Assembly (NCBI GenBank): GCA_024275995.1
Contig: JAJRYB010000067.1
Coordinates: forward strand, 28,417 to 92,416
DNA from: Planctomycetota bacterium
GTDB taxonomy: Bacteria; Planctomycetota; Phycisphaerae; SM23-33
Reading direction: 5' to 3'
DNA length: 64,000 bases
Under the pieces are notes generated by a model. It was not told the DNA's origin and searched no databases. It saw only the letters and a program-made list of their open reading frames with translations. Below, piece by piece: positions 1 through 54,777 of the stretch (positions are counted from its first letter, which is position 1; every line of letters begins with the position of its first letter). The position numbers and the translations under genes were made by a program.

Positions 1-447
1 GGTAAACCCACGGCAGAGGAATGGTCCATCCTGCAGGGACACACCTATTACACGTTCCGTATTCTGGATACGATCGGCGGGATGCCGCAGATCAGCGAGT
101 GGGCGGCGTTCCACCACGAACGCCTCGACGGTAAAGGCTACCCGTTCGGTCATAAGGGTAGGGATCTGACACTCGGCGCCCGGATCATGGCCGTTGCCGA
201 CACGTTCACAGCCGTAACCGAGGATAGACCGTACCGCAAGGGCATGGAAGACGAAGAGGCTTTGGGCGTGTTGACCGGGCTTGTCGCCAATGGCGGGCTT
301 GATGGGCAGGTTGTGGAGACGCTCCGACGGGATTTCGGCGTAATCAACGCCATTCGACGGAAAGAACAAAAGGCCTACGCCGTGAAGCAACGGCGATTGC
401 TGGAGGCGACAGGTGATGTGCCTGCCGTCGCCTGCGCCGAGGTCTGA
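1..447 (+). CDS. HD-GYP domain phosphodiesterase, C-terminal fragment (5' end outside window)
   Basis: Frame 1 is open from nt 1 to the stop at 447. Translation contains HHERLDGKGYPFG, the HD-GYP signature. The ORF-track start at 82 is an internal Met. Confidence 0.7.
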   Translation, partial: GKPTAEEWSILQGHTYYTFRILDTIGGMPQISEWAAFHHERLDGKGYPFGHKGRDLTLGARIMAVADTFTAVTEDRPYRKGMEDEEALGVLTGLVANGGLDGQVVETLRRDFGVINAIRRKEQKAYAVKQRRLLEATGDVPAVACAEV

Positions 448-672
448 ATTATACGCCGGATTCGGGGTTCAAGAGTTTACGGCAGGTTCCGCTTCGCCCC
501 GCTCAGGGCTGGTCTCCAACCACTCCGCGAATTGACATAACACCCCCGCCGCCAGGTAGCTGTGATCGTCGCTTGCAATTTTGCGGTTTTCTTTCGTAAC
601 TTGCTGCGGTAACCTGACCCCTTCCGACGTGTTGAATTCTCGGGACGACAGTGTCCCACAGGAGATTTTTCC

Positions 673-1722
673 ATGAGTGAAGGGGCAAAACAACCTGCCG
701 ATCTGCGCATCATCGAGAACCTCAACAAGGCCAAGGCGAAACTGTACGCCGAGTTGCACAAGGTTATCATCGGCCAGGACGCAGTACTCGAGATGCTTCT
801 CCAGGCGATGCTCTCCCGTGGGCACTGCCTTCTGGTGGGCGTTCCGGGACTGGCCAAGACACTGATGATCTCGACGCTCGCGGAGGTCCTCAAGCTGTCG
901 TTCAACCGCATCCAATTCACGCCGGACCTCATGCCGTCCGACATCACGGGAACGGATATCATCGAGGAGGACCTCACCACGGGGCGGCGCGCGTTCAGGT
1001 TCGTCAAGGGTCCGGTATTCGCGAACATCATCCTGGCCGACGAGATCAACCGCACGCCCCCCAAGACCCAGGCGGCACTGCTCCAGGCGATGCAGGAATA
1101 CCACGTCACGACCGGTGGAAACACATACGAAGTCGAGCAGCCCTTTTTCGTGCTGGCTACGCAGAACCCTATCGAGCAGGAAGGCACCTACCCCCTGCCC
1201 GAGGCACAGCTCGACAGGTTCATGTTCATGGTGATGGTGGATTATCCCTCGCTCGAGGAAGAACGCCTGATCGCCAAAACAACCACGACGGAAATCCAGG
1301 GTCGGCCTGATACCGTTCTCAGCGGAGAGGACGTCCTCGCCCTCCAGCGGATCGTGCGGAAGATACCCGTATCCCAGCACGTGGTGGATTACGCCGTAAG
1401 TCTCGCGCGTGCGTCCAGGCCGTCGGACGCCTCATCGCCGGACTTCATCCGGAACTATCTTACGTGGGGCGCCGGTCCGCGAGCGGCCCAATACCTGCTG
1501 CTCGGCGCCAAGAGCCGTGCCCTGCTCCACGGGCGGTTCAACGTAGCCGCACAGGACGTTCGCGCCATGGCAAGGCCGGTGATGCGGCATCGTATCTTCA
1601 CGAACTTCAACGCCGACGCCGAGGGTGTCAGCCCGGACGATATAATCGACATGCTGGTCCAGGCGGTAAGCGAACCGCAAGTCGAGGACTACCGCGCCCA
1701 GAGCGAACCGGTGAGCGTGTAA
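673..1722 (+). CDS. MoxR-family AAA+ ATPase
   Basis: Walker A motif LLVGVPGLAKT. ILADEINRTPPKTQAALLQAMQE is the MoxR signature. Length of 349 aa fits the family. Confidence 0.9.
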   Translation: MSEGAKQPADLRIIENLNKAKAKLYAELHKVIIGQDAVLEMLLQAMLSRGHCLLVGVPGLAKTLMISTLAEVLKLSFNRIQFTPDLMPSDITGTDIIEEDLTTGRRAFRFVKGPVFANIILADEINRTPPKTQAALLQAMQEYHVTTGGNTYEVEQPFFVLATQNPIEQEGTYPLPEAQLDRFMFMVMVDYPSLEEERLIAKTTTTEIQGRPDTVLSGEDVLALQRIVRKIPVSQHVVDYAVSLARASRPSDASSPDFIRNYLTWGAGPRAAQYLLLGAKSRALLHGRFNVAAQDVRAMARPVMRHRIFTNFNADAEGVSPDDIIDMLVQAVSEPQVEDYRAQSEPVSV

Positions 1723-1738
1723 TCTCCCACGATCCCCC

Positions 1739-3211
1739 ATGAAAAAACTGATCGCGATTTCGGTAATAATGGCAGCGGCTTGCCCGGTCCTCCAGGCCCA
1801 ATCGTCCAACACGCAGGCGGCGATGAAGCACCTCCGCGGGTCGCTTGGCGACAAGCGTTCGATCAACATGGTGCTCACCGTACTCCGCGCCACCGGCGAT
1901 AAGCACCTGCTGCCCCTGTTCACGGCGGTTTCTCGCAGTGCCGATAAGAAGCGCCGGCTGTTCGCCGTCTCGGCGCTTCCGGAAATAGGCGACAAGGCGT
2001 CCGCGCCGGTGCTGCTGGAACGCCTGCGGAAAGACCCGCTTATGGCGGTTCGGTCCGAGGCGCTTATCAGGCTTCTGGACCTAAAGGCGATATCGGACGA
2101 GCAGCTTATCGAAGTCCTCAAGACCTCCGACGACGGAATCCAATGCATCGCCGCGAGGGAGCTGGTTCGGCGAGGACGTGGTATGGAAGCCGAAAAGACG
2201 CTGCGAACGCTCACGTTCGTGACGGATCTTTCGACGGCGTGCATGGCGCGGGTATCCCTGCTGAGTCTCGGATACAACGAGCAGCTCGACGAACTCAAGA
2301 AGACGTTCGCCGATCCGAACACGCCGCAGGAGGTGAAGGCCCTTGTGCTTTACCAGATCGCCGAAGACAAGGTCGTGCTCGGCATGGACCTGGTGCGGAT
2401 GATGACGCGGAGCAAATCGAGCCGCCTCCGGCTGGCGGCGTACCGCGCGATCAAGGAGATATCTCCGCGGGCAAGCGCCGAACTTGCGGACGCTATCGGA
2501 AAATCCACCAGGACGGGTATCCGTGTCCGCCTGCTGAAACTCCTTGCCGATCGTTCCGATTCGAGCCTGTTCCTGGTGCAGATCAGCAAGGGCAAAGACG
2601 TCATCGCCGACCTCGCCCGCTTTGAACTGTTGCGAATCAAGGGAGGCGACCGCGCCGCCGGCGCCGTCGCACAGGTTGTAAAAAGCGGACACCCCATCGT
2701 AATCGATTACGTGCTTAGCCGCGCCAATGAGGACATCAAAAAACGCCCGGACAAATCCGCTTACTACGCGATCTCTCTGGCGGAATATATCCGCAGCGTG
2801 GAACCCTTCCCCAAGGCGATGGGCGCCGATCATCAGCGGGCCGCCGTCGCCGCGACGCTTCTGGGCGACCTGGGAACGCCCGAGGCGCTCGGACTGCTCA
2901 GAAAGATCCTCTCAGGCCGCTACAACGGCGTTACCCGCGCGACGGCGGCGGGACTTCTGCGATCGACCAACCGCGCGGTCTGCGACATCGCGGCGCCGCT
3001 ATTGCGAAATCCCTATCGCGAAATCGCAATGGATGCCGCGTTCACCATGGGGCGCTTCGCCGATCGGCGAGCGGCGCCGATGCTGCGAACCACGCTGGAC
3101 CATCCGCAGCGTTATTCCAGTGCGGTTACCGCACTGTGCGCGTGGTATCTCCTGAAAATCGAAAAAGCCACTCAAAAGGCGGGCCAAGACCTCGCTAAAG
3201 TGATAAGATAA
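1739..3211 (+). CDS. Secreted HEAT/PBS-lyase-like repeat protein
   Basis: N-terminal signal peptide MKKLIAISVIMAAACPVLQA. Repeated (A)VR..A..AL..IGD..A...L motifs typical of HEAT-like repeats. Confidence 0.55.
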   Translation: MKKLIAISVIMAAACPVLQAQSSNTQAAMKHLRGSLGDKRSINMVLTVLRATGDKHLLPLFTAVSRSADKKRRLFAVSALPEIGDKASAPVLLERLRKDPLMAVRSEALIRLLDLKAISDEQLIEVLKTSDDGIQCIAARELVRRGRGMEAEKTLRTLTFVTDLSTACMARVSLLSLGYNEQLDELKKTFADPNTPQEVKALVLYQIAEDKVVLGMDLVRMMTRSKSSRLRLAAYRAIKEISPRASAELADAIGKSTRTGIRVRLLKLLADRSDSSLFLVQISKGKDVIADLARFELLRIKGGDRAAGAVAQVVKSGHPIVIDYVLSRANEDIKKRPDKSAYYAISLAEYIRSVEPFPKAMGADHQRAAVAATLLGDLGTPEALGLLRKILSGRYNGVTRATAAGLLRSTNRAVCDIAAPLLRNPYREIAMDAAFTMGRFADRRAAPMLRTTLDHPQRYSSAVTALCAWYLLKIEKATQKAGQDLAKVIR

Positions 3212-8287: not shown

Positions 8288-10567
8288 GTGACTTCCGATC
8301 GCCGGGTCTCCTCCGAACTTTCGCGGGACTTGAACCTGTTCCACGTAACCATGATGGGACTGGGGATGATGATCGGCGCGGGGGTTTTTATCGGTATCGG
8401 GATAAGCACCGGGCGCGTCGGTCCCGGAGGGGTAATCATGACGTTCGCCCTCAGCGGACTGCTTGCGCTGTTCACCGCAATGAGCTTCGCCGAACTGAGC
8501 AGCGCCATTCCCCGTGCCGGAGGCGCGTACAACTTCGCGCGAATCGCGTTCGGTCGCGGTCCCAGCTTCCTTGCCGGGTGGATGGAATGGTTCGCCTCCT
8601 CGGTCGCGGGCAGCCTGTATGCCGTGGTCTTCGCCGGATACACCGTCAAGTACGTAACCAACGGCCTGCTTGGAATGGACCTGGCGGACGAGGACCTTAT
8701 GGTGGTCGTAAGAATCGTCGCCGTCGCTGTGGCGTCGCTGTTCATCTACATCAACTACCGCGGCGCGTCCGAGACCGGAAAGATCGGCGCGATAATTACG
8801 GTTGGACAGATGCTCTTCGTCGTCGCAATCGCGGTGATTGGCATCGTAATAGCTATCGTCGAACCGTCGCGGATGGCGAACTTCACACCCTTCATGCCGA
8901 ACGGATGGGGAGAGCTCCTGGTAACGATGGGATTCATCTACGTCGCGTTCGAGGGGTTCGAGGTGATCGCCCAGGCCGGCGACGAAACGATCGACCCGAA
9001 GCGAAATATACCCAAGGCGATGCTCTACTCGGTGCTGATCGTTACGATCACGTACGTCGCCGTTTCGTTCGCGACGATGGTCTCCATCAAGAGCGGCGCC
9101 GAGGGTGTCGGCGACGAGGTCTGGCGGTGGATCGGAACGCGCGGACCCCAGGCGGACGGCGAGCACGGCTTCGGCGAGGCGATCAACCGCATGATCCCCT
9201 TCGGGGGGCTACTGGTGACGCTGGCGGTGGTGTTCGCCTCGACATCCGCGATGAACGCCACGGTCTACTCGGCGACGAGGGCGTCTTACGCGCTGGGCAG
9301 AGACCGGATGCTCCCTGCCGCGTTCGCTAAAATCAGCCCGAAACGCAAAACGCCCTACGTTGCCCTGGCGTTCACCGGCGTGATCGTGCTGGTCGTTGCG
9401 GGACTGCTGCCCACCAAAGACGTCGCGTCCTGTGCGAGCATCATGTTCCTTTTCCTGTTCCTGATGGTGAACCTGTGTGTCATAAAAATCCGGCGGAACA
9501 TGGGCGACGAGCTGACGTACGGCTTCGTAATGCCGCTTTTTCCCCTGTTTCCGATCCTGGCGATTATTTTCCAGGTGCTGCTGGCGGCGAATATCCTGCA
9601 CATGAGCCTGATGGCGTGGATCATCGCGCCAATCTGGGTGCTGGCGGGAATTGTTTTATACTTCGCCTATTCGCGATCGCGCGCCATAACCACGGCCGAC
9701 GAAATCCTCGTCATCGAAGAGGGCGAAACTCCCGCCGGAGACGGCTGCCGAATCATGGTCTCCGTCGCGAACCCCGACGGCGCCCTCCAACTCGTCCAGA
9801 ACACATACCGGATATGCTCAGCCAGGAACGCCCGCGTGGAATTGCTCCACATGGTTCCGGTTCCGGACCAGGTTCCGCTCGCCGACGCCGGGCCGTACAT
9901 GCTCGAAGGAAAAGAGGGCATCCAGGAAACGATGCTTTACCTCGCACCGCAATTCCCGATCAGCACTCACCTGCGATATTGTCGCAACGTGGCGCGTGGT
10001 ATCGTCAGCGCTGTGAGGGAAAAGAAAATCAACATGCTCATCATGGGGTGGCACGGTAGATCTCGCAGCGGGCTGTTCCACCTCGGAAGCACCGTGGACC
10101 CGATCATCGAACGGGCGCCCTGCGACGTGGTGATCCTGAAAGACTGCGGGGGGAACCGGGTGTTCAAGCGTGTGCTGGTCCCTGTCGCCGGTGGACCCAA
10201 CAGCGCACTTGCGCTGGAAATCGCCAGCACGCTCGCCGACGGTCAGGAAGGGCGCATCGTCGCGTTTACCGTGGACAGAGGCATGGGCTTCGATCTCGAT
10301 GCTTTCCTGGAAAAGAATCGATCCCGCCTGCGCTTGCCTCGCGAGCGGATAGAAACGAAAATCGTCAGCCGGGCGGATATCCGCCAGGCGATTCTCGATG
10401 AATCGCAGGAGTACGACCTGGTAGTCCTGGGCAGCACCGCCGAGGCGCGCCTGCGATTGATGAGACACGATCCGGTACCCGAAGCGGTAGCCAAGGCGTG
10501 TAAAAAACCGCTCGTAATGGTGCGGGCATCGTCGGGACTGCGAAGCTGGATCCGGCGTTGGATATAA
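8288..10567 (+). CDS. APC-family amino-acid permease fused to two C-terminal UspA (universal stress) domains
   Basis: N-terminal 12-TM region containing MMGLGMMIGAGVFIGIGI, typical of APC transporters. The C-terminal ~300 aa carries two Usp-like alpha/beta units (VELLHMVPV.., INMLIMGWHG, RVLVPVAGGPNS). GTG start. Confidence 0.8.
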   Translation: MTSDRRVSSELSRDLNLFHVTMMGLGMMIGAGVFIGIGISTGRVGPGGVIMTFALSGLLALFTAMSFAELSSAIPRAGGAYNFARIAFGRGPSFLAGWMEWFASSVAGSLYAVVFAGYTVKYVTNGLLGMDLADEDLMVVVRIVAVAVASLFIYINYRGASETGKIGAIITVGQMLFVVAIAVIGIVIAIVEPSRMANFTPFMPNGWGELLVTMGFIYVAFEGFEVIAQAGDETIDPKRNIPKAMLYSVLIVTITYVAVSFATMVSIKSGAEGVGDEVWRWIGTRGPQADGEHGFGEAINRMIPFGGLLVTLAVVFASTSAMNATVYSATRASYALGRDRMLPAAFAKISPKRKTPYVALAFTGVIVLVVAGLLPTKDVASCASIMFLFLFLMVNLCVIKIRRNMGDELTYGFVMPLFPLFPILAIIFQVLLAANILHMSLMAWIIAPIWVLAGIVLYFAYSRSRAITTADEILVIEEGETPAGDGCRIMVSVANPDGALQLVQNTYRICSARNARVELLHMVPVPDQVPLADAGPYMLEGKEGIQETMLYLAPQFPISTHLRYCRNVARGIVSAVREKKINMLIMGWHGRSRSGLFHLGSTVDPIIERAPCDVVILKDCGGNRVFKRVLVPVAGGPNSALALEIASTLADGQEGRIVAFTVDRGMGFDLDAFLEKNRSRLRLPRERIETKIVSRADIRQAILDESQEYDLVVLGSTAEARLRLMRHDPVPEAVAKACKKPLVMVRASSGLRSWIRRWI

Positions 10568-19435: not shown

Positions 19436-20827
19436 TCAAGCTCCGCATCGCAATTCAGTCCGCCGCGGAGTTATTTTTTTCGGCATCTGCGCCTTCCCGA
19501 GGCGGATCAGCTGCACCAGCGGGATCGACGCCGGGCAAACGTAGGCGCAGCAGCCGCACTCCATGCACGCCGTTATGTGATACCTGCGGGCAAGTTCCCA
19601 ATCCCCGTGCTTGGACGCCAGCGCCATCTTGGCCGCCACGAGTTTCAGCGGGCAGACGTCCACGCACTTACCGCAATGCACGCAGGCGGTCTCGTCCGCC
19701 TTTCGGACGTCATCTCGCGTGAGAACGGTAAGTCCGCTGGTGCCCTTGGTCACGGGCGTATCGAGCTCGCCAAGCGTAAAGCCCATCATCGGGCCGCCCG
19801 CGATGACTCGCGCGGCGTCTTCGGTAAGTCCGCCGCAATAGTCAATCAGTTCGCCGTAGCTTATTCCGATCGGAACGAGCAGGTTTTTCGGGTTTCGGAT
19901 TCCGCGTCCCGACACGGTGAGAACCCGGTGCGTGAGCGCCTTGTCGCGGACTACCGCCCTTGCGATCGCAGCCGACGTTCCAACGTTGCACACGACGGCG
20001 CCCACGTCCAGCGGAAGCCCGCCGGTGGGAACCTCACGACCGATCGCCGCGAGAACCGTCTGCTTCTCACCGCCCATGGGATACTTGGTCTTGAGCGAAC
20101 GGACGATCATGTCCGTCCCCTCAGCCGCTTTGAGCATGGTCTCGATGGCGGAAGGTTTGTTGTCTTCGATCGCGACGATTATTCGCTTCGCCCCGCAGGC
20201 ACGGGCTGCCAGCAGCGCCCCGCAGACGATCGCGTCCGGCGCTTCGAGCATCAGGCGATAGTCCGCCGTGAGGTAAGGCTCGCACTCGCAGCCGTTCAGG
20301 AGCAGCGTATCGACCGGCTTTGCGTCGTTGAGTTTCAGCTTGACGTAGGTGGGAAACGCCGCCCCGCCCTGGCCGACGATGCCCGCTTCCCGCACGGCCG
20401 TCACGATGGCGTCCGGCCCGTAACGGTCCAGGCCCGTCTTCGGCCAATCGCCGCCGAGAATGTCTTCAAACAGCGCATCTCCGGAGAGCTGCTGTTCGTC
20501 TGCCTTGATCGGAACCGTCTTGACGTGCCTGCCGTTGGGAAGCGTCGCCACCGAGGACATCGCGACCGTCCCGGTAATCGTGGCGTGAACCGGCGCCGAG
20601 ATGAACGCCTCGGACTCGCCGATTTTCTCGCCCAGGACGACTTGCTGCCTGGCCTTGACCAGCGGTTCGCACTGCGCCCCGAGATGTTGCAGCAGCGGCA
20701 CGGAAACCTTCGCGGGGGTCGGAACGACCTCGATTGCAACATCGGCGGCCAGTGACTTTTCGTCGTGCGGGTGGACGCCGCGTGCGAACGTGCCCTTGGC
20801 GGAAAGTTTCATCGTCGTCGAACCCAT
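19436..20827 (-). CDS. rnfC: Rnf complex subunit C (NADH-binding, 2x4Fe-4S)
   Basis: N-terminal GVHPHD. CVHCGKCVDVCP and CMECGCCAYVCP ferredoxin motifs. Start ATG overlaps the upstream stop (TGATG). Confidence 0.9.
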   Translation of the reverse strand: MGSTTMKLSAKGTFARGVHPHDEKSLAADVAIEVVPTPAKVSVPLLQHLGAQCEPLVKARQQVVLGEKIGESEAFISAPVHATITGTVAMSSVATLPNGRHVKTVPIKADEQQLSGDALFEDILGGDWPKTGLDRYGPDAIVTAVREAGIVGQGGAAFPTYVKLKLNDAKPVDTLLLNGCECEPYLTADYRLMLEAPDAIVCGALLAARACGAKRIIVAIEDNKPSAIETMLKAAEGTDMIVRSLKTKYPMGGEKQTVLAAIGREVPTGGLPLDVGAVVCNVGTSAAIARAVVRDKALTHRVLTVSGRGIRNPKNLLVPIGISYGELIDYCGGLTEDAARVIAGGPMMGFTLGELDTPVTKGTSGLTVLTRDDVRKADETACVHCGKCVDVCPLKLVAAKMALASKHGDWELARRYHITACMECGCCAYVCPASIPLVQLIRLGKAQMPKKITPRRTELRCGA

Positions 20828-29789: not shown

Positions 29790-32300
29790 ATGGGGCCATC
29801 GTCGCCGAATGAGCTTGGTCGTCCCCGCCTGCGTCGCGCGCCGCTGGTGCCGGTCGCGGCTGCGATGATCGCCGGTATCCTCGCCGGGCGATATCTCCCG
29901 CTTCCGCTGGCGATGTGGTGCGTTACGGGCGTGGCGGCTATCGCCGTCGCCGTCGCAACCTTCCCACGCAGGCACCTGGCGGAAATCTCGAAAACGGCGA
30001 TCGGCGTGGCGGTTCTCTGCGCCGGTGCGGCGAACCTGCGGCTGGCGTATTTCCACATACCCGACGACCATATCGTCACCTGCACGAGACGGGCGCCTTC
30101 GCTGGCGACCGTTCGCGGACGGATCGTCAGCTCACCACAGACGGCCCGGCCCGTCAGCGCGAACCTCGGCGGTTACAGCCCGGGCCCGAGAACGAATTTC
30201 ATTCTCCGCGCGGAGAGCATCCGGACGAAAGACGGGTATCGCCGGACAAGCGGGCTGCTGTCGGTAATGGTGAAGGAGCCCCGTCGGAACCTCCTCGCCG
30301 GGCAACAGGTGGAGCTTGTCGGATGGCTTTCCCGGTTCCGACCGCCGCGCAACCCCGGCGAACTTGACCTCCGCGAACTCAAACGCCGCAAGGGGATTCT
30401 CGCACGCATGACGCTCGAAAGTCGCGACGCGGTGATCGTTACGCAGGTCGGCGAGAAGCCGTGGTACACGCGAATGTACTGGAATATCCGCGCTGCCGCC
30501 GGCCAGCACTTGACGAGCGAAGATAGCGGCGAAGGACGCCTCGTAAGCGCGCTGGTCCTCGGAAAGAGGCATCCGACGCTGAAAAAACTCTCCGGGATCA
30601 TGGTGCGGGCCGGAATCGCCCACATGCTGAGCATCTCGGGCCTGCACCTGGGAATCTTTCTCGGGTTCGTGTTCCTGCTCTGCCGGATCGTCGCGATGTC
30701 TTCCAGGCGCTCGGCGACGGTGGTCCTGGTGGTCCTGATAGCATACGTCCTGCTGGCCGAGGCCCGCGCTCCGCTGTTGCGGTCCGCGGTGATGGCGGCG
30801 GCATTGTGCCTGGGAATGATCTTCGGACGAAGACAAATGGCGCTCAATTCGCTCGCCGTCGCGGCGATCGTCCTGCTGGCGGTTGACCCGCTCCAGATTT
30901 TCTCGGCTGGGTTCCAACTCAGTTTCACCATCGTCGCGGGCATTATCCTGTTCCTGCATCCCGCGCGACGGTTGTTGTTTGGCCGGTGGCTGCGGCGACG
31001 TGGACTTATGGTGTTCCGCAGGGAAGACCGCCTTCGACGCTGGGTCCAGTTCGTCGTCGCGGACCGTCTTACTTACGCCGTCGCCATGTGTCTTGTAGCG
31101 TATCTCTCGGCGGCGCCGCTGGTGGCGTATCATTTCGGACTTTTCAATCCGTACGCCCCGCTGCTGAGCCTGCTGCTCCTGCCGTTTCTCGTCGCCATTC
31201 TCGTACCGGGGTACATATCCCTGGCGCTGGTTTGGCCGATGCCGAATCTCGCCTGGCAATTCAGCCGTGCCGCCGAATCCGCCGCCGGCGCGATGCGGCG
31301 GGTCGTCGAGGGCATCGATAAACTTCCCGCACTGAGCGTCTCGCTGCGTCCGCTCGATTGGTGGTGGGTCTGGATGTGCTACGCCGCCTTGCTGCTTGTG
31401 GCGTATTACAGGCGGATTCCCTTCGGCAGGATACCGGCGGCGTGTGCGCTGGCGATTGTCGCGGCGACGGCGGTCGTTTCGCAACTGCCCGCGCCGCGAC
31501 CGGATGCGGCGGAGTTGAACATGCTGGCCGTGGGCGACGGGCAGTGCGTCCTTCTGCGGACGCCGAGCGGACAGACGTATCTCATCGACGCGGGGACCAT
31601 CAGCGGGTTCGACGTCTACGAGTACGCACTCGCACCGTTCGTGCGACGGGAGCGGCTGCCAAGCCCACGCGCGGCGTTCATCTCACACGCGAACACGGAC
31701 CACTACGGTGCAATTGCACCTGCGATGCGCGATGGGTGGGCGAAAAAAGTGTACCTGAACGATTATTTCGGGCGGGAGGAATACTCCGCGCCGGGCGTGA
31801 TAACCATGATGGATCTGTTCCGCAAAACGGCGAGGCAACGCGTTCGCCTGCGCGCTGGGGACGTAGTCCGCCTGGACGAGCGAACGAGCGTATCGGTCCT
31901 CTGGCCGCCGGTTCATCGCCGCGACGGGCTGAGCATAAACAATACTTCGCTTGTCCTGCGCATTACATGCGACGGAAAGAGCGTTCTGCTGCCGGGCGAC
32001 CTGGACGCCGATGGGCAGGCGGTACTCGCGAAAATGCCGGAGCGGATCACTTCGGACGTGCTCGTTCTACCGCACCACGGCGGGTGGGAAAATCAATTGC
32101 CCGCTTTCTTCGACGCAGTATCGCCCAGGATCGTCCTCGTCAGCACCAGCCATGACCCGAAAGGCCCAGCAACTTCCCCCGCCGCGGCGAGGTTCTATAA
32201 TCGCATCCGGACGAACCATCGGTATTATTCGACCGCGAGGAACGGCTGGATCCGCGTGCGATTCGGCGCCTCCGGGATCGACGTGAAGACAATGCGTTGA
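29790..32300 (+). CDS. comEC: DNA internalisation competence protein ComEC/Rec2
   Basis: N-terminal DUF4131-like TM region, competence domain, and C-terminal MBL domain (HANTDHYG...LPHHGG). Confidence 0.88.
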   Translation: MGPSSPNELGRPRLRRAPLVPVAAAMIAGILAGRYLPLPLAMWCVTGVAAIAVAVATFPRRHLAEISKTAIGVAVLCAGAANLRLAYFHIPDDHIVTCTRRAPSLATVRGRIVSSPQTARPVSANLGGYSPGPRTNFILRAESIRTKDGYRRTSGLLSVMVKEPRRNLLAGQQVELVGWLSRFRPPRNPGELDLRELKRRKGILARMTLESRDAVIVTQVGEKPWYTRMYWNIRAAAGQHLTSEDSGEGRLVSALVLGKRHPTLKKLSGIMVRAGIAHMLSISGLHLGIFLGFVFLLCRIVAMSSRRSATVVLVVLIAYVLLAEARAPLLRSAVMAAALCLGMIFGRRQMALNSLAVAAIVLLAVDPLQIFSAGFQLSFTIVAGIILFLHPARRLLFGRWLRRRGLMVFRREDRLRRWVQFVVADRLTYAVAMCLVAYLSAAPLVAYHFGLFNPYAPLLSLLLLPFLVAILVPGYISLALVWPMPNLAWQFSRAAESAAGAMRRVVEGIDKLPALSVSLRPLDWWWVWMCYAALLLVAYYRRIPFGRIPAACALAIVAATAVVSQLPAPRPDAAELNMLAVGDGQCVLLRTPSGQTYLIDAGTISGFDVYEYALAPFVRRERLPSPRAAFISHANTDHYGAIAPAMRDGWAKKVYLNDYFGREEYSAPGVITMMDLFRKTARQRVRLRAGDVVRLDERTSVSVLWPPVHRRDGLSINNTSLVLRITCDGKSVLLPGDLDADGQAVLAKMPERITSDVLVLPHHGGWENQLPAFFDAVSPRIVLVSTSHDPKGPATSPAAARFYNRIRTNHRYYSTARNGWIRVRFGASGIDVKTMR

Positions 32301-45463: not shown

Positions 45464-46338
45464 ACGCCGAGAAAGTGACATCGCTTCCGAAACTTCCCTC
45501 ACGCGAACCCGACGCGCACAAGGGCGACTTCGGACGCGTACTTGTGGTGGGCGGATCGCGCGGAATGATCGGAGCGCCTTCGCTGGCTGCCAACGCAGCC
45601 TTGCGCAGCGGAGCGGGGCTGGTAACCGTCGCCGCACCGCGGGACGTACAGTTGTTCGTCGCGACGCTCTGTCCGTGCGCAACGTCGATTCCGCTGTCCT
45701 GCGGGGAAACGGGCGATCCCGTCGCCGGCGCCGTCCGAGAAATGCTCGATGCCGCGAAACGCTGCGACGTATTGGCCGCCGGGTGCGGAATGGGCGCGGG
45801 GGTCGCGCAGGAAAATCTCATCCGCGCGGCGATCGGGCAGGAACGTCCTCTCGTTCTGGACGCCGACGGATTGAACAACCTCGCGAAGATCGACGATTGG
45901 CCGTCCTTGCGACGATGCCCGCTGGTTCTTACGCCGCACGTCGGCGAATTCGCACGCCTCACGCGCCGCCCCGTCGCCCGAATACAGGCGGACCGCGCCT
46001 CGGCGGCAATCGACGCTGCCGGGCAATGGACCGTCGGCGAACCGCCGCCGGTCGTTGTCCTGAAGGGCGCCGCAACGGTCGTCACGGACGGAAAACGCAT
46101 CTTCGTGAACGATACGGGCAATCCGGGGATGGCGACCGGTGGAAGCGGCGACGTGCTGACGGGGCTTCTCGCGGCGATAATCGGACAGGGACTTTCGCCG
46201 TTCGAGGCTGCGTGCCTGGCTGTCAACGTTCATGGCCGCTCCGGCGACCTTGCCGCCGAAGCGCTGGGCGAAACGTCGCTGATCGCCACCGACCTGCTCG
46301 ATTATCTCCCGGCGGCTCTAAAACAGCGGTCCTCATGA
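45460..46338 (+). CDS. nnrD: ADP-dependent NAD(P)H-hydrate dehydratase (YjeF C-terminal domain)
   Basis: GDFGRVLVVGGSRGMIGAPSLAANAALRSGAGLV, TPHVGEF and GNPGMATGGSGDVLTG motifs. ATGA overlap with larB. Confidence 0.88.
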   Translation: MNAEKVTSLPKLPSREPDAHKGDFGRVLVVGGSRGMIGAPSLAANAALRSGAGLVTVAAPRDVQLFVATLCPCATSIPLSCGETGDPVAGAVREMLDAAKRCDVLAAGCGMGAGVAQENLIRAAIGQERPLVLDADGLNNLAKIDDWPSLRRCPLVLTPHVGEFARLTRRPVARIQADRASAAIDAAGQWTVGEPPPVVVLKGAATVVTDGKRIFVNDTGNPGMATGGSGDVLTGLLAAIIGQGLSPFEAACLAVNVHGRSGDLAAEALGETSLIATDLLDYLPAALKQRSS

Positions 46339-47192
46339 AACGAATCACGGTAATCCTGGTAATCGCCGCCTCGCTTCTGGGCTGCAACGAGGGGAAGCCT
46401 TCTCGCGGCGACGCGCCCAGGCCACGGATCGTAAGTTTCTCGCCCGCCCTTACGGACATGCTTTACGATATGGGCCTGGGCGATCACGTCGTCGGCGTGA
46501 CCACCTATTGCATGCCGCCCGGAAACAACCCGCCCCCCGCGGTCGGTAACCGTTTCAAGGTCAGCGCCGAGGCGATTCTCTCGGTCTCGCCGGACGTTAT
46601 CCTTTCGCAGCAGAACCCCGACGACTTCGCCGCCGTTGGGAAGATCGACCCGGACGTGAAAGTCCAGTTCGTCCGGATGGAGACGTTTAAGGACATCGCC
46701 GAGACCATCGAGCGTCTCGGACGGATCACCGGACGGGACGAAATCGGCAGGCAGCGCAAGTGGGCGTTTCTCGAAAGGCTTGAGAGGGTAGCGGCGCGCG
46801 TGAAAGGCAGGCCGCGCCCCAGGACGCTGTTCGTGATGGGTTACGAGAGGCCCTCGACCGGAGGGAGCGGAACGTTCATCGACGACATGATTCGCACTGC
46901 AGGCGGTATCGACGCCGCGACGGACCGCGGATACTCCGGCTGGAAAATGCTGAACCGCGAGAACATTCTCGCGATGAGGCCGGATGTTCTCATCTGCCAG
47001 GTATCCGACGGGCAGGAACCAGCCGCCCGGAAATACTGGCGAACGCTGGGCGACCTTCCGGCAGTGCAGCAGGGGCGGGTGTTCATCGTGACGGATCGCC
47101 GATGGACGATCCCCTCGATACGATCGGCGCAGTACGCTGGGAAACTCGCCGAAATGATTCACCCGGACGAACCTGGAAGGTCGGGTCGATGA
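46335..47192 (+). CDS. ABC transporter periplasmic substrate-binding lipoprotein, BtuF/FecB (cluster A, class 8) type
   Basis: Lipobox LLGC. The MGLGDHVVGVT..C...P motif is typical of BtuF/haem/siderophore binding proteins. Start at MKRITVIL (46335), overlapping the nnrD stop. Confidence 0.8.
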   Translation: MKRITVILVIAASLLGCNEGKPSRGDAPRPRIVSFSPALTDMLYDMGLGDHVVGVTTYCMPPGNNPPPAVGNRFKVSAEAILSVSPDVILSQQNPDDFAAVGKIDPDVKVQFVRMETFKDIAETIERLGRITGRDEIGRQRKWAFLERLERVAARVKGRPRPRTLFVMGYERPSTGGSGTFIDDMIRTAGGIDAATDRGYSGWKMLNRENILAMRPDVLICQVSDGQEPAARKYWRTLGDLPAVQQGRVFIVTDRRWTIPSIRSAQYAGKLAEMIHPDEPGRSGR

Positions 47193-48202
47193 CGGACAGC
47201 CCCGCGATACCCGCCAGGCACCTGACGGGCCGCCGCCTGGTGATACTCCTGGCGATTCTCGCGGGCGCAGCAATCGCCGTCGCCCTGGCGTGCAGCCTGC
47301 TGGGCGAGTATCGCCTGATGTGGAGCACCTGGCAGGCGAGGATGCTGCGATTGACGGCGGCGGCGATCGTAGGCGCGGCGCTCGCCTCGGCGGGAGTAGC
47401 GCTCCAGGGCCTGCTGCGGAATCCCCTCGCCGAGCCGTTCGTGCTGGGAATATCCAGCGGCGCCGGGGTCGGCGTGCTTCTGGGTTTCGCAGCCGCCGGA
47501 TGGGTCGCCCTTCCCGGATGGGCGACGACGCCCCTGCTGGCGCTGATCGGGGCGCTCCTTACCTGCCTGCTGGTCTACTCGATAGCGCAGCGGCACGGCA
47601 GGCTGGACCCGTTCGTACTGCTGCTTTCGGGCGTCATAGTAAACGCGTTCAACGGCGCGATCATGCTGGGCATATTCCTCCTGGTCCCTCCGCGGACGAT
47701 TTCCAGCTTCACCATGTGGGCGATGGGCGGAATATCCGAAAATATCGCCATCGCCGAGACCGGGTTCATGCTGACCTGCGGGGGGGCGGTACTGGCCGGC
47801 TGGGCGATGCTGCTGCTTCGCGGCGCGGCGTTCAACACGCTGGGACTGGGCGACGAGGTCGCCCTGTCCACCGGAGTCTCGGTGCATCGCCTGCGCATGG
47901 AAACGTTCGTAATCGTCGCCATGATGACCGCGGCGGCGGTTGCCCTGGCCGGTCCCATCGGTTTCGTCGGGCTTATCGTGCCGCACATCTGCCGCCTGAT
48001 CGTCGGTCCCGATCACCGGAAGCTGGCGATAGTCGGAGGATTCGCCGGCGCGATGTTCCTGATGATCGCCGACACGCTCTGCCGGTTGGCGGGCAGCTGG
48101 CTGCGAATCGGCGAGGTCCCGGTGGGTATCGTAACCGCCCTGTCCGGAGGGCCTTTCTTCATCTTCCTGCTGCGGAGACGATTCCGGGAGGTCTCGCCGT
48201 GA
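47189..48202 (+). CDS. FecCD/BtuC-family ABC permease
   Basis: About 10 TM segments. GISSGAGVGV and LSGGPFFIFLL motifs. Start at the ATG at 47189, overlapping the upstream stop. Confidence 0.85.
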   Translation: MTDSPAIPARHLTGRRLVILLAILAGAAIAVALACSLLGEYRLMWSTWQARMLRLTAAAIVGAALASAGVALQGLLRNPLAEPFVLGISSGAGVGVLLGFAAAGWVALPGWATTPLLALIGALLTCLLVYSIAQRHGRLDPFVLLLSGVIVNAFNGAIMLGIFLLVPPRTISSFTMWAMGGISENIAIAETGFMLTCGGAVLAGWAMLLLRGAAFNTLGLGDEVALSTGVSVHRLRMETFVIVAMMTAAAVALAGPIGFVGLIVPHICRLIVGPDHRKLAIVGGFAGAMFLMIADTLCRLAGSWLRIGEVPVGIVTALSGGPFFIFLLRRRFREVSP

Positions 48203-48987
48203 AAAGCGTCGAAAATATTCTTCTGGCCGGCGACCTTCGCTTCGCATACAGGCCCGGCCAGCCGGTCCTTCGCGGCGTGAATTTTTCATCCCGTGCGGGC
48301 AAGCTCACGTGCATCCTTGGACCGAACGGTTCCGGTAAGACCACGCTCCTGCGATGCCTTATGGGAAGGCTTCGACCCGACGGCGGAGAGGTTCTCCTGA
48401 AGAACAAGGCCGTCCGGAAGTACTCGACGCGAGAGCTGGCGAGGTTGCTCGCCTACGTGCCGCAGTTTCCCGCCTCGGCGCAGGCGTTCACCGTTCACGA
48501 GATCGTCCTGCTGGGACGGTTCGCACATACCGGCGCGCTGGCGCTGACGGGCGAGAAGGACCACGCCGTCGCCCGGGCGGCGATGGTAATGACCGACACG
48601 CTGCGATTCGCCGATCGGACGCTCGACGAGCTTTCCGGAGGCGAGGCGCAGTGCGCCATGATCGCCCGGGCGCTCGCGCAGCAGCCAAAGGTCATGCTCC
48701 TGGACGAACCGTCCAGCCACCTTGACGTCAGGAACCAGCTCGCCATCTACCGCATGATGCAGCGATTGGCGCACGACTGGAACATGGCCGTCATCTGCGT
48801 CAGCCACGACGTGAACCTCGCTGCACGCTTTTCCGACAGGATGCTGCTGATGCGGGAGGGTTGCGTTCTTACCGACGGCAGGCCGGAGGACGTCATCCGC
48901 CGGGACGTTCTCGCCGAGACCTATGACGTCCAGATCGACCTTATCGAATCGCCCGATTCGCCCGTTCCGTTCATCCGCGCACGCTGA
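48199..48987 (+). CDS. ABC transporter ATP-binding protein (BtuD/FecE type)
   Basis: Walker A GPNGSGKTTLL, signature LSGGEAQ, Walker B LLDEP. GTG start overlapping the permease stop. Confidence 0.85.
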   Translation: MKSVENILLAGDLRFAYRPGQPVLRGVNFSSRAGKLTCILGPNGSGKTTLLRCLMGRLRPDGGEVLLKNKAVRKYSTRELARLLAYVPQFPASAQAFTVHEIVLLGRFAHTGALALTGEKDHAVARAAMVMTDTLRFADRTLDELSGGEAQCAMIARALAQQPKVMLLDEPSSHLDVRNQLAIYRMMQRLAHDWNMAVICVSHDVNLAARFSDRMLLMREGCVLTDGRPEDVIRRDVLAETYDVQIDLIESPDSPVPFIRAR

Positions 48988-51061: not shown

Positions 51062-51090
51062 TTGACAGTTTCCCGAACTCTGGTAAAAGG
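51062..51090 (+). promoter_or_regulatory. Putative sigma-70-like promoter for riboswitch transcript
   Basis: TTGACA at 51062..51067. 16-nt spacer. TAAAAG preceded by TGG. Confidence 0.3.
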
Positions 51091-51315
51091 GGAGTCGTTG
51101 CAGGTGTCCCGGCTGGAGCCGGGGCAAAAAGGGAAGCCCGTGAGAATCGGGCGCGGACGCGCCGCTGTAACCGGCGACGACCGCCGCAAATGCCACTGTT
51201 CTGATGCGTTATCAGGATGGGAAGGCGCGGTGGGCGGATGAGGCGAGAGAGCTGGAGAGAAAGCCTCGGGAGCTGGGAGCCAGAAGACCTGCCTGCGACC
51301 AACCTGTGTCGGCCT
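51083..51315 (+). promoter_or_regulatory. Cobalamin (B12) riboswitch aptamer
   Basis: AAAAGGGAAGCCCGUGAGAAUCGGGCGCGGACGCGCCGCUGUAACCGG ... AUGCCACUGUUCUGAUGCGUUAUCAGGAUGGGAAGGCG ... AGAAGACCUGCC. This reproduces the conserved core and B12-box of the E. coli btuB leader nearly position for position. Confidence 0.85.
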
Positions 51316-51364
51316 TCGCGAGTCAATCGGCCGTCGGGACAAGGTTCTTTGAACTTCTTGACGC

Positions 51365-51397
51365 CCCGGCTTGCATTCGCGAAGTCCGGGGTTTTTG
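51365..51397 (+). terminator. Intrinsic terminator (riboswitch expression platform)
   Basis: CCCCGGCUUGCAUUCGCGAAGUCCGGGG followed by UUUUU. Confidence 0.7.
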
Positions 51398-51664
51398 CTT
51401 GGCTCGTCGCGCGGAACGACGGTTGTTGAAGTGCTCTGCCTGCCGCGCGGAAACCAGCCGAAAATCCCCATCCCCAGGTTGCTGTGGTTCGATCTTGCGC
51501 CCGGATCGTATCGCACCGTAAAGCTCGGCGCTCATGAAAAAGATACGAAAGGAGTGAAGCCCTCACAGCTCAAAAGAAGGAAGCTCGTTTTTCGCGTTCG
51601 TTTTTTCATTGGCTCGGAGGCGTCTTCAGGGACGCCCCAAAAATTCAGCTCAGGAGGTTGGAAA

Positions 51665-52315
51665 GTGAATAAGCGCAGCCTGATTATTGTAGCCGTGTTC
51701 TGCGGCGTGCTGGTCGCCCCGACGAGGGGTTATGGATACACGTTCGACGATATCGTCGTTGAAGCCTGGGCCGGCTCCGGGGCGAACGAGGCGATGTCCG
51801 TCGTTGACTTCGGCGGTGGGAATTCCTACGCGTTCGGATATCGCTGGGACGGCGCAAAGACGAGCGAGGACATGCTCGTAGCGATCGACGGGCTACCCGG
51901 GCTGACGGTCGATTACAACTACCACCCGGTCTGGGGGTTCGCCGTCAATTCCTTCAGCTACGACGGGCGCACCATCGCCAGCGACGGGTGGGTTACGACG
52001 TACCTTTCCTTCTGGTGGAGCGGTAACGCCGCCTGGACCGAGTATGTCTACGATTGGAACCCGCCATACGACCTGCTGGACACCATCGAACACGACGCCA
52101 AGGCGGGCGACGGCGAGAACTGGGACTACGCCGGGCTTGGCGCGGGCTTCCGCGAGCTGGCCGACGGCGTGTGGGACGGATGGACGCTGGGCGACGCGAC
52201 AACCTTCGACGCGGACCCGCCCGTCTCGCCCGTTCCGGAACCGGCGACGATGAGCGTCCTGGCGATCGGCGGGCTGATGCTGCTCACAAGGCGCGCTGGG
52301 CGAAAACGTATATAA
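51665..52315 (+). CDS. PEP-CTERM sorting-domain secreted protein
   Basis: AGGAGG RBS, GTG start, signal peptide. C-terminal PVPEPATMSVLAIGGLMLLTRRAGRKRI is a PEP motif plus TM plus basic tail. Confidence 0.75.
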   Translation: MNKRSLIIVAVFCGVLVAPTRGYGYTFDDIVVEAWAGSGANEAMSVVDFGGGNSYAFGYRWDGAKTSEDMLVAIDGLPGLTVDYNYHPVWGFAVNSFSYDGRTIASDGWVTTYLSFWWSGNAAWTEYVYDWNPPYDLLDTIEHDAKAGDGENWDYAGLGAGFRELADGVWDGWTLGDATTFDADPPVSPVPEPATMSVLAIGGLMLLTRRAGRKRI

Positions 52316-52389
52316 AAAATCCCGGAAGAGCGGAGCTCGGGCCATCGTCATGCCGGCCCGGGCTTCCGCTCGACTTTCGAGCGTGGATA

Positions 52390-53127
52390 TTGAAAAGGCG
52401 TTCAATAAAATCCGGCTTTACGCTTATCGAATTGCTTGTAGTGATCTCCGTGATCGCCCTGCTTACGAGCATACTCGCGCCAAGCCTGTCGGTGGCGAAG
52501 GAGATGGCGCGGGCTACGGCGTGCATGGGCAACCTGCGAGCACTCAGCGTGACGATGGGATTATATCACGGCGATAATGACCAGCGCTTCTGGCCGTACC
52601 GGCTCGACAATTGGCCATCGCCGGGAGTGAAGTGCTACTTCTGGGGGACTGACGCCGATCCGGTCGATCAGTCCGCAAGCCCGTTCATGAACTACTGCGA
52701 CGATAACCCGGAGTACCTGTGGTGCCCGTCGCTGAAATGGGGCTCCTACATCCCACAGGGATGGTACGTCAGCGAGCCGACGACGACCTACGGATACAAC
52801 GGGCGATACCTCGACCCGGCACTTAACGGGACGAACAGCCGGCGACTGTCAAGCATTCCAGACCCGTCGCAACTTTTCGTACTGAACGATTCTGCCATGT
52901 TCTGGCAGATCGCGGGACGTTCGATCTTCCAGAACAGCACGTACCTCGAACCGGTATCAGGAAACTGGGTGCAGCAGCCCACCAGTCATTTCCGGCACTC
53001 CGGTAAAACCAACGCGCTCTGCGCGGACGGGCACGCCGAGGCATACGGCACGGAAGGATGGAACCTCGACAAGGTCAACATGCTGGGCTTCGTCGGAACA
53101 CGGAACTACCCGCATTATGAACAGTAG
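52390..53127 (+). CDS. Prepilin-type N-terminal cleavage/methylation domain protein, DUF1559 (H-X9-DG) family
   Basis: Leader (M)KRRSIKSG|FTLIELLVVISVIALL is a class III signal. HSGKTNALCADGHAEAYG is an H-X9-DG-like C-terminus. TTG start inferred. Confidence 0.7.
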   Translation: MKRRSIKSGFTLIELLVVISVIALLTSILAPSLSVAKEMARATACMGNLRALSVTMGLYHGDNDQRFWPYRLDNWPSPGVKCYFWGTDADPVDQSASPFMNYCDDNPEYLWCPSLKWGSYIPQGWYVSEPTTTYGYNGRYLDPALNGTNSRRLSSIPDPSQLFVLNDSAMFWQIAGRSIFQNSTYLEPVSGNWVQQPTSHFRHSGKTNALCADGHAEAYGTEGWNLDKVNMLGFVGTRNYPHYEQ

Positions 53128-53521
53128 ACTTGCAATGCTGCTGCTACTAGCCGCCCTCGCCGCAACAACCGCCGGCTGCCGCGACGAATACGCTCACGAG
53201 CGGCTGGACGGCAGGTCGCCCCGGTTCGTCAAGGTCGCAGAAATGCTGGCCTCGCTTCGGGCTGCCGGCGAAAGCGGGTTCGACGCTGCCTGCGACGAGC
53301 AGACCGCCGAGGGGCTGGACAAAAACCGTCGCCTGGCAGTGCGACTTACGCTGCGGCAACTGTCGGACGCAAAGAAAGTGGAGCTTCTTCGCGTGGACCG
53401 GTTCGGCGAGAATATGTACCGGGCGACCATCGGCTACGCCTGGCAAGGCGAGAAGCGGACAATCGCCCTGCTGCTTTTCGCGGATGGCGAGGACAATCTC
53501 CGCTGGGCAGGGCGAAACTGA
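53117..53521 (+). CDS. Hypothetical lipoprotein
   Basis: MNSRLAMLLLLAALAATTAGC lipobox. 134 aa. No further homology recognised. Confidence 0.5.
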   Translation: MNSRLAMLLLLAALAATTAGCRDEYAHERLDGRSPRFVKVAEMLASLRAAGESGFDAACDEQTAEGLDKNRRLAVRLTLRQLSDAKKVELLRVDRFGENMYRATIGYAWQGEKRTIALLLFADGEDNLRWAGRN

Positions 53522-54692: not shown

Positions 54693-54777
54693 CGGTAGGG
54701 GTGGGATTCGAACCCACGGTACCTTTCGGCACACCGGTTTTCAAGACCGGCTCCTTCAGCCGCTCGGACACCCTACC
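54693..54777 (-). tRNA. tRNA-Ser (UGA)
   Basis: Reverse complement: GGTAGGG TG TCCGAGCGGCTGAAGGA GCCGGTCTTGAAAACCGGT GTGCCGAAAGGTACC GTGGGTTCGAATCCCAC CCCTACC G. Long variable arm. Anticodon TGA. Confidence 0.88.

Follow-up and report, generated by a model that had tools for sequence, protein, structure and literature searches.

A cobalamin riboswitch in front of a secreted-protein, prepilin-type and lipoprotein cassette: a probable vitamin B12-scavenging system of planctomycete-type bacteria

What does a cobalamin riboswitch control when none of the genes behind it is recognizable as a B12 gene? This question is raised by a locus in a 64-kb stretch of the Planctomycetota contig JAJRYB010000067.1 (the whole stretch is hereafter called the window), where a cobalamin riboswitch precedes three genes, termed A, B and C, for a secreted protein, a prepilin-type protein and a lipoprotein. 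All three products are envelope proteins, and no enzyme domain was found in any of them. The initial annotation left two explanations side by side, an unrecognized cobalamin-capture system and a relic riboswitch driving an unrelated operon. Our comparative analyses indicated that the cassette is most likely a previously undescribed B12-scavenging system of planctomycete-type bacteria and not a relic; to our knowledge, no accessory system for B12 uptake has been described for these organisms. With a probability of roughly 0.7, the promoter, riboswitch, terminator, leader and genes A, B and C form one unit that is induced at cobalamin scarcity and serves corrinoid capture and uptake. The riboswitch itself is ordinary, and what is new is the cassette that it regulates. 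The features of the unit are as follows.

51062..51089, plus strand: putative sigma-70-like promoter, read from the sequence (-35 box TTGACA at 51062..51067, 16-nt spacer, -10 box TAAAAG at 51084..51089)
51085..51310, plus strand: cobalamin riboswitch aptamer (RF00174), full length, from a covariance-model match
51310..51333, plus strand: P13-like hairpin, the first after P1, with a GGCC stem and a loop containing CGCGA, from an alignment of 20 loci
51364..51396, plus strand: intrinsic terminator, stem CCCCGG...CCGGGG at 51364..51391 followed by five U residues at 51392..51396 (RNAfold, -16.0 kcal/mol)
51466..51520, plus strand: conserved leader element, a C-rich tract with CAGGUUG and a CGAUC/GAUCG hairpin (51490..51508) with the invariant loop UUGCGCCCG
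51665..52315, plus strand: gene A, secreted protein of 216 aa, GTG start with AGGAGG 7 nt upstream
52319..52379, plus strand: strong stem-loop of about 21 bp within the 75 nt that separate A from B; the folding energy of 52305..52400 is -39.2 kcal/mol (z -2.89)
52390..53127, plus strand: gene B, prepilin-type protein of 245 aa with a G|FTLIE motif and a long helix at its N-terminal end, a globular head that is conserved, and H-X9-DG
53117..53521, plus strand: gene C, lipoprotein of 134 aa with the lipobox TAG|C, its start overlapping the end of B by 11 nt

The identity of the riboswitch is clear. The Rfam covariance-model scan matched RF00174 over the full model (positions 1-189 of 189) with an E-value of 7.8e-24 and 100.1 bits, above the gathering score of 31.5 bits below which the initial annotation would have given up its call; the aptamer, which had been placed at 51083..51315, thus stands nearly as drawn. 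The B12 box GCCACUG lies within it at 51192..51198, and no second RF00174 match was found in the whole window.

The link between riboswitch and cassette was then followed through related loci, which are cited below by L numbers. In genomes of Phycisphaerae, other Planctomycetota and Sedimentisphaerales and in Lentisphaerae metagenome-assembled genomes, where the loci were found by a pattern derived from A (a 9-sequence subset of the A alignment), RF00174 was located upstream on the same strand in 10 of 10 cases, with 42-116 bits. The B alignment retrieved 48 loci from metagenome contigs, and among the 30 scanned, each with at least 1.4 kb of upstream sequence, 25 carried the riboswitch upstream on the same strand; the other five comprise two A-B-C cassettes where the contig stops shortly before the first cassette gene and three lone B paralogues without A or C. 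Six more loci came from an exact-protein look-up, five of them with divergent homologues of A and one from a complete Planctomycetales genome of 5.7 Mb, and all six have RF00174 upstream on the same strand. Taken together, each of the 44 loci with an A-family gene and intact upstream DNA carries a same-strand riboswitch (38-121 bits, several phyla), and the conservation across orthologous loci that the initial annotation had proposed to look for was thus found with no counter-example. Many loci share the order NrnA, riboswitch, A-B-C, aldo-keto reductase; the riboswitch is also retained in at least 15 others, where the neighbouring genes differ.

As judged from tblastn and from hidden Markov model (HMM) scans of six-frame open reading frames (ORFs), the loci fall into two types. 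Type 1, found in the window and in most loci, consists of riboswitch-A-B-C, in some cases with an additional gene for a secreted protein, D, before or after A. Type 2, found in more divergent lineages, consists of riboswitch-A-D-B' and lacks C. Single variants are riboswitch-B-C-BtuF without A (L052) and riboswitch-D-propeller-B' (L058). Protein D, which is absent from the window, is a secreted protein of 260-750 aa (about 290-350 aa as the additional protein of type 1) that is always encoded behind the riboswitch; it ends in a PEP-CTERM or dockerin module and carries the motif VVSYxxG...ALGxP...DQIVSIGxGGSL. No Pfam family matched D, and a relationship to DUF4465/BtuJ was considered and rejected for lack of Pfam support. 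The D genes are located as follows.

L022, 1631..2521: D
L032, 1623..2543: D
L045, 1614..2483: D
L014, 960..1883: D
L019, 2543..3430: D
L006, 5931..6965: D
L058, 968..1750: D
L060-L064: D, the gene after A

Three further observations were made in these loci. In the type-2 loci L006, L008, L061, L063 and L064 there is no TTGACA box, and the motif GCTCTTTGAAA stands about 10-20 nt upstream of the aptamer, which may represent a different type of promoter. Beside the type-2 cassette of L060, a second cobalamin riboswitch (10198..10396) stands right in front of a gene for an anaerobic ribonucleotide reductase (ATP-cone + NRDD), a classic B12-independent isozyme that is thus under B12 control. In L021, a truncated B-like gene (2..556) ends just upstream of a complete riboswitch-A-B-C cassette (644..2991), which suggests tandem cassettes in some genomes.

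The control elements around the aptamer are also retained. Most type-1 loci have, at the same position immediately 5' of the aptamer, a TTGACA box together with a TAnAnT-like box, and the segment 51062..51089 of the window probably works as a promoter, as inferred from its boxes; a strict promoter scan did not list it because its last -10 base is G. In the P13-like hairpin, the CGCGA loop is invariant and the flanking stem variable across the 20 aligned loci, and by analogy with known cobalamin riboswitch architecture this loop is a candidate kissing-loop partner of L5 (ACGCG). The terminator, placed by the initial annotation one base further downstream at 51365..51397, was missed by a simple consensus scan and recovered by RNAfold around U-runs. 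Of the 41 riboswitch-bearing loci that were scanned, about 25 have an equivalent CCCCGG...CCGGGG-UUUUU hairpin 75 to 140 nt past the aptamer, with folding energies of -16 to -27 kcal/mol, position and shape being kept while the inner-stem sequence varies. RNAalifold on the platform alignment returned invariant long-range pairs only and no covariation, so that the conservation of the terminator is read from folds of individual loci with differing stem sequences. The minimum free energy structure of 51300..51420 contains a long helix in which the segment after P1 (CGCGA) pairs with the 5' half and loop of the terminator; this competing helix is a possible antiterminator.

Between the terminator and gene A lies a leader of about 270 nt, as the initial annotation had noted for the 5' untranslated region. 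Its upstream ORF (uORF) MKKIRKE exists as well, at 51534..51557 instead of 51533..51556; the peptide is not conserved in related loci. What is conserved is the element at 51466..51520, the loop of which reads TTGCGCCCG in the window (51495..51503). It occurs in one copy per locus and at the same leader position in at least 22 loci (the window, L001, L002, L004, L010, L015, L017, L022, L023, L027, L029, L031, L032, L034, L037, L042, L043, L045, L049, L053, L058 and L062). Its hairpin shows compensatory changes in four of the five stem pairs, and each locus has the exact 11-mer CTTGCGCCCGG once, at the leader position everywhere except in L007. Helix P4 of the aptamer has a 3' strand (CGGGCGC, 51148..51154) to which the loop of the hairpin is complementary. 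A Shine-Dalgarno-like GGAGG follows about 55-75 nt past the element, where several loci also have a uORF of 4-8 codons. No Rfam family was found for the leader, a scan of 51300..51700 by E-value giving chance-level matches only.

If the riboswitch has persisted in front of these genes, what might their products do? The most informative of them is A, which has a signal peptide, then at about residues 25-180 a transcobalamin-beta-like domain (putatively a divergent form of DUF4430/SLBB), and at 189-213 a PEP-CTERM tail. The C-terminal tail, VPEPATMSVLAIGGLMLLTRRAGRKRI, passes TIGR02595 (17.3, cutoff 16) and falls short of PF07589 (17.9, cutoff 20.7), a model matched by 34 of 36 A-family members at a permissive E <= 5 (best 1e-6); the protein is thus a PEP-CTERM secreted protein, as first proposed. 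No exosortase turned up among the window ORFs scanned. An AlphaFold2 model of A was obtained with a predicted local distance difference test score (pLDDT) of 91.7 and a predicted template modelling score (pTM) of 0.80. The only strong structural matches of this model were the beta domains of transcobalamin (TC), intrinsic factor (IF) and haptocorrin (HC) together with the DUF4430 protein 3u7z, with a wide gap to the next fold. Independently, the top eight matches of a Foldseek search were all TC or 3u7z (probability 0.75-0.98, with weak E-values). The model is a beta-grasp with a beta-hairpin that follows the helix (E80-87, E91-99) and can be superposed on the TC and IF beta domains. Such a post-helix hairpin is the mark of the transcobalamin-like SLBB clade and provides much of the contact with B12 (Burroughs et al., PMC1796856). 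Thus, A is predicted from its model to fold like the cobalamin-binding beta domain of human transcobalamin and of intrinsic factor.

The family around this domain is large and has no Pfam model of its own. A word-index search of 5.8 billion proteins found 37 relatives of A, all of them unnamed proteins, and a HMMER profile search of 1.84 billion representatives found the A domain in 3,597 clusters (50% identity) at E <= 1e-3 and in 307 at E <= 1e-30. The relatives (P0159-P0301) often have 2-7 tandem copies, and some end in a sorting tail of the type IX secretion system (T9SS). In one of them, P0217, repeat 7 (1168-1325) matches the A-family HMM with an independent E-value of 6.7e-8, and residues 1248-1279 inside the same repeat match PF14478 with 34.9 bits against a gathering cutoff of 23.8; as both models match one repeat, P0217 provides a sequence bridge between the A family and DUF4430. 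A DUF5074 domain in P0222 matches 9s6c rather than BtuG, and this fusion was therefore not counted as one with BtuG.

The genomic contexts of the distant relatives (L065-L070) point in the same direction. Five of five distant multi-repeat A-domain proteins are encoded behind an RF00174 riboswitch and beside genes of the BtuB/BtuG or the BtuFCD type. Two distant A-domain genes share their operons, loci of the Bacteroidota type, with genes for a TonB-dependent receptor and for a homologue of BtuG, and this homologue matches chain B of 8BLW with an E-value of 1.6e-58, the chain being BtuG1 (PMC10404256). In L068, an alpha/alpha toroid is fused to the A-domain protein, the gene of which adjoins BtuFCD-like genes. 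One of the distant A-domain genes has its own riboswitch and lies directly downstream of a riboswitch-controlled BtuF/FecCD/ABC operon, and in a sixth distant locus BtuR is encoded two genes downstream.

Gene B is the most conserved member of the cassette (46-72% identity, more than 120 clusters), and its family is restricted to the Planctomycetes-Verrucomicrobia-Chlamydiae (PVC) group. Its prepilin site, KSG|FTLIELLVV, was recognized by PF07963 (27.6, cutoff 21.2) and TIGR02532 (28.9, cutoff 16.3). The H-X9-DG motif near the C-terminus comprises H203, D213 and G214, of which H203 is invariant and D213 and G214 occur in at least 90% of 39 orthologues. The model of B (pLDDT 85.9) has a 50-residue N-terminal helix (12-62) and a beta-rich head; a pilin-like fold is its top structural match, but a weak one, and among families the N-terminal part of GspG/ComGC matches best. 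The initial annotation had called B a DUF1559 prepilin-type protein, and the prepilin part of this call holds. The DUF1559 part holds only partly: the window B matches neither PF07596 nor TIGR04294, while among its 39 orthologues 30 match PF07596 weakly at E <= 1 (best 4.5e-6) and one matches TIGR04294 (E 0.036), which by sequence makes B only a fringe member of DUF1559. A classical DxHxxG cobalamin-binding motif was also sought in B and rejected, as the HFRHSG stretch has no Asp.

The lipoprotein C, recognized as such from the start and confirmed by its lipobox, matched no known family in Pfam or NCBIfam, and no relative of known function was found. It has a conserved C-terminal motif in addition to the conserved lipobox, and in 47 related loci the C-family HMM located it right behind B. 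The stem-loop between A and B may be specific to this lineage, A and B being almost contiguous in many related loci; it might set the ratio of A to B or act as a partial terminator or processing site. A convergent aldo-keto reductase gene ends the A-B-C unit.

A candidate inner-membrane transporter is encoded nearby.

46335..48987, plus strand: BtuF/BtuC/BtuD-like ATP-binding cassette (ABC) importer (Peripla_BP_2, FecCD, ABC_tran), about 2.1 kb upstream of the riboswitch, with the BtuF-like protein encoded at 46335..47192

The family scores (Peripla_BP_2 90.6, FecCD 239.1, ABC ATPase 105.9 bits) indicate type II ABC importer architecture. The initial annotation had described a B12-type importer that is not under the riboswitch, and indeed no RF00174 match lies in front of these genes. 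The BtuFCD-like architecture stands; the B12 specificity is only putative, all scores against the BtuC and BtuF equivalog models being below cutoff (BtuC NF007081, 207 against 461; BtuF NF002894, 65 against 234). The best matches of the ATPase are heme, F420-0 and corrinoid models, again all below their cutoffs. In L019, L028 and L052 the gene directly behind the cassette is BtuF-like, accompanied in L028 by permease and ATPase genes, and the same type of importer lies upstream of the cassette in the window and in L001. The importer at 46335..48987 is thus a possible inner-membrane partner of the cassette. No type II secretion, type IV pilus machinery, TonB-dependent receptor or cobalamin biosynthesis gene was seen among the window ORFs scanned.

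We propose that the locus works as a single transcription unit under an OFF switch of the adenosylcobalamin (AdoCbl) type. With B12 bound, the CGCGA loop would kiss L5 and leave the terminator free to form; without B12, the competing helix would block the terminator, and read-through would allow A, B and C to be made. Protein A would be exported, trimmed at its tail by an exosortase and displayed on the surface, where its SLBB/DUF4430-like domain would bind corrinoids. The pilin-signal protein B might sit anchored in the inner membrane or form part of a fibre resembling those of type II secretion or type IV pili, and B and the translationally coupled lipoprotein C would hand the vitamin across the envelope to an ABC importer of the BtuF-BtuCD type. 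In PVC-group bacteria, B and C would thereby replace BtuB-BtuG, the companions of the same A domain in Bacteroidota. The parts of this proposal differ in strength. That the cassette serves cobalamin acquisition is quite likely, and the unrecognized capture system of the initial annotation has gained ground from the predicted transcobalamin beta fold of A, from related cassettes in operons with BtuF(CD) and from the distant A domains in BtuB-BtuG loci. Direct binding of corrinoids by A is probable, if somewhat less so. We only tentatively infer that B and C form a specific relay of B12.

Several points weigh against this proposal. Beyond its PEP-CTERM tail, A has no match in Pfam or NCBIfam and none in PDB by phmmer or profile, and neither the window A nor any of 36 family members matches PF14478 (DUF4430) even at E <= 5. 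The fold was assigned from a predicted structure together with the bridging sequence of P0217, which is a single case. The beta domain of transcobalamin is half of a binding site and cooperates with an alpha domain; A, unlike transcobalamin, has no alpha domain. The cassette encodes no outer-membrane transporter. The loci that share the NrnA-aldo-keto reductase synteny are related by descent and not independent, and the five distant A-domain proteins were hand-picked from the representative search rather than sampled at random. The conserved leader hairpin could add a second layer of control beyond a simple OFF switch. In addition, SLBB domains are known to bind ligands other than B12 (PMC1796856).

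The best-surviving alternative is that B is a pseudopilin linking A to a type II secretion-like machine and C an assembly or anchoring factor, with uptake proceeding through unrelated transporters; the cassette would then still act in B12 capture, but its proteins B and C would not carry the vitamin. The canonical prepilin motif of B, its best family match to the N-terminal part of GspG/ComGC and its top-ranking, though weak, pilin-like fold are all compatible with this, as is the need of A to cross the outer membrane in order to act; the tips of type II secretion system pseudopili are known to engage cargo. However, L052 keeps riboswitch-B-C-BtuF without A, the supposed cargo, PEP-CTERM proteins are thought to use exosortase and not a dedicated pseudopilin, and the conservation of B exceeds that of A (identities of 41-72% and 28-55%, respectively), which would be unusual for a mere adaptor. 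Thus, we regard this alternative as unlikely. More improbable still is a remodelling of the surface at B12 starvation, in which A, B and C would alter adhesion or the matrix (attachment to B12 producers, flocs) and neither bind nor transport corrinoids. PEP-CTERM proteins are generally tied to flocs and exopolysaccharide, adhesion is often a task of pilin-like proteins, and dockerin modules occur in some relatives of A or D; however, the predicted fold of A specifically matches that of cobalamin carriers, with the wide gap to the next fold noted above, A-domain genes are co-operonic with BtuB/BtuG, BtuFCD or BtuR in other phyla, and BtuF follows the cassette in three loci. Finally, a leftover riboswitch accidentally placed before an unrelated secreted-protein operon, as the unexpected gene content and the nearby recognizable ABC importer outside riboswitch control might suggest, is rejected as extremely improbable, since the riboswitch precedes the cassette in all 44 informative loci across synteny contexts and phyla and the terminator is kept while its inner stem varies, promoter and leader element being conserved as well.

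Some other genes of the window were recorded alongside the cassette.

54693..54777, minus strand: long-arm tRNA gene past the aldo-keto reductase, recurring in L002, L022, L027, L032, L037 and L045
54927..56441, minus strand: Porin_5-family putative porin, 1.4 kb downstream of the cassette, found in the window only among the loci compared
29790..32300, plus strand: ComEC competence-channel gene, unrelated to the finding
19436..20827, minus strand: RnfC, whose canonical SLBB domain (PF10531) belongs to the clade that is sister to the fold predicted for A, unrelated to the finding

The proposed scavenging system indicates a route of B12 acquisition in planctomycete-type bacteria, which are abundant in sediments, sludge and marine snow. 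As the A domain stood behind a B12 riboswitch in every locus checked, it offers a new marker for the annotation of B12 regulons in metagenomes, including the BtuB-BtuG loci of Bacteroidota. The riboswitch also suggests which ligand one orthologous group with ties to DUF1559/H-X9-DG might have, and the role of this group thereby becomes testable. Full-text literature searches found no report that combines a cobalamin riboswitch with PEP-CTERM, DUF1559 or DUF4430 proteins.

Among known systems, the closest to A are the bacterial extracellular transcobalamin-like SLBB proteins (DUF4430, PF14478), which were predicted to scavenge B12 and were described from Firmicutes and archaea in linkage to transporters of the energy-coupling factor (ECF) type (Burroughs et al. 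2007, PMC1796856). A resembles this clade in its predicted beta-grasp with an extra hairpin, its secreted or surface location and its B12 context, and its relatives do so in their tandem repeats and the alpha/alpha toroid fusion. The window A and 35 relatives, however, do not match the Pfam model of DUF4430. Moreover, A would be anchored by PEP-CTERM/exosortase, or by a T9SS tail in its Bacteroidota relatives, and not by Gram-positive cell-wall motifs, and it is accompanied by a lipoprotein and a protein resembling pseudopilins, or else by BtuB-BtuG, and not by ECF transporters of the CbiO/CbiQ type.

In function, the proposed cassette would parallel the riboswitch-controlled surface relay of Bacteroides thetaiotaomicron, in which BtuB-BtuG are joined by BtuH, BtuJ and BtuK, with binders that include the propeller of BtuG and the jelly-roll of BtuJ/DUF4465 (PMC10404256, PMC8941943, PMC12751083, PMC13398666). 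In both, a cobalamin riboswitch would induce accessory surface binders that feed a core importer at B12 limitation. However, A, B and C are not homologous to BtuG (beta-propeller), BtuH or BtuJ (jelly-roll); no Pfam or NCBIfam match to DUF5074 (BtuG) or DUF4465 (BtuJ) was found in A, B or C, and none in D. There is also no TonB-dependent receptor in the cassette or the window, and only one of the three proteins is a lipoprotein.

The DUF1559/H-X9-DG family (TIGR04294; DUF1559/SBP_bac_10) is the largest paralogue family in planctomycetes and has no assigned function (PMC10632474, PMC4807772); two of its members are essential in Planctopirus (PMC10632474). B shares with this family the prepilin motif, the long N-terminal helix, the H-X9-DG motif and the restriction to the PVC group. 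B forms a tight orthologous group with fixed genomic partners and a riboswitch, which is not known for the family at large.

In the Sulfolobus 'bindosome', and in the competence pseudopilus together with ComEA, proteins with pilin signals or pseudopili and a ligand receptor jointly supply an inner-membrane transporter with its substrate. An SLBB domain is present in ComEA itself (PMC1796856). It is conceivable, if doubtful, that PVC bacteria (Planctomycetota, Lentisphaerota) import B12 by a machine of this pseudopilus or 'bindosome' type instead of a TonB-dependent receptor, with B and C as the B12-specific module between A and BtuFCD. If this were true, the large paralogue families of DUF1559/H-X9-DG proteins would be substrate-specific uptake adaptors, and the present cassette would contain the first of them to which a ligand can be assigned. 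Unlike in these two systems, the substrate would be a vitamin, the cassette contains no assembly ATPase or secretin gene, and what B has in common with them is the pilin signal only.

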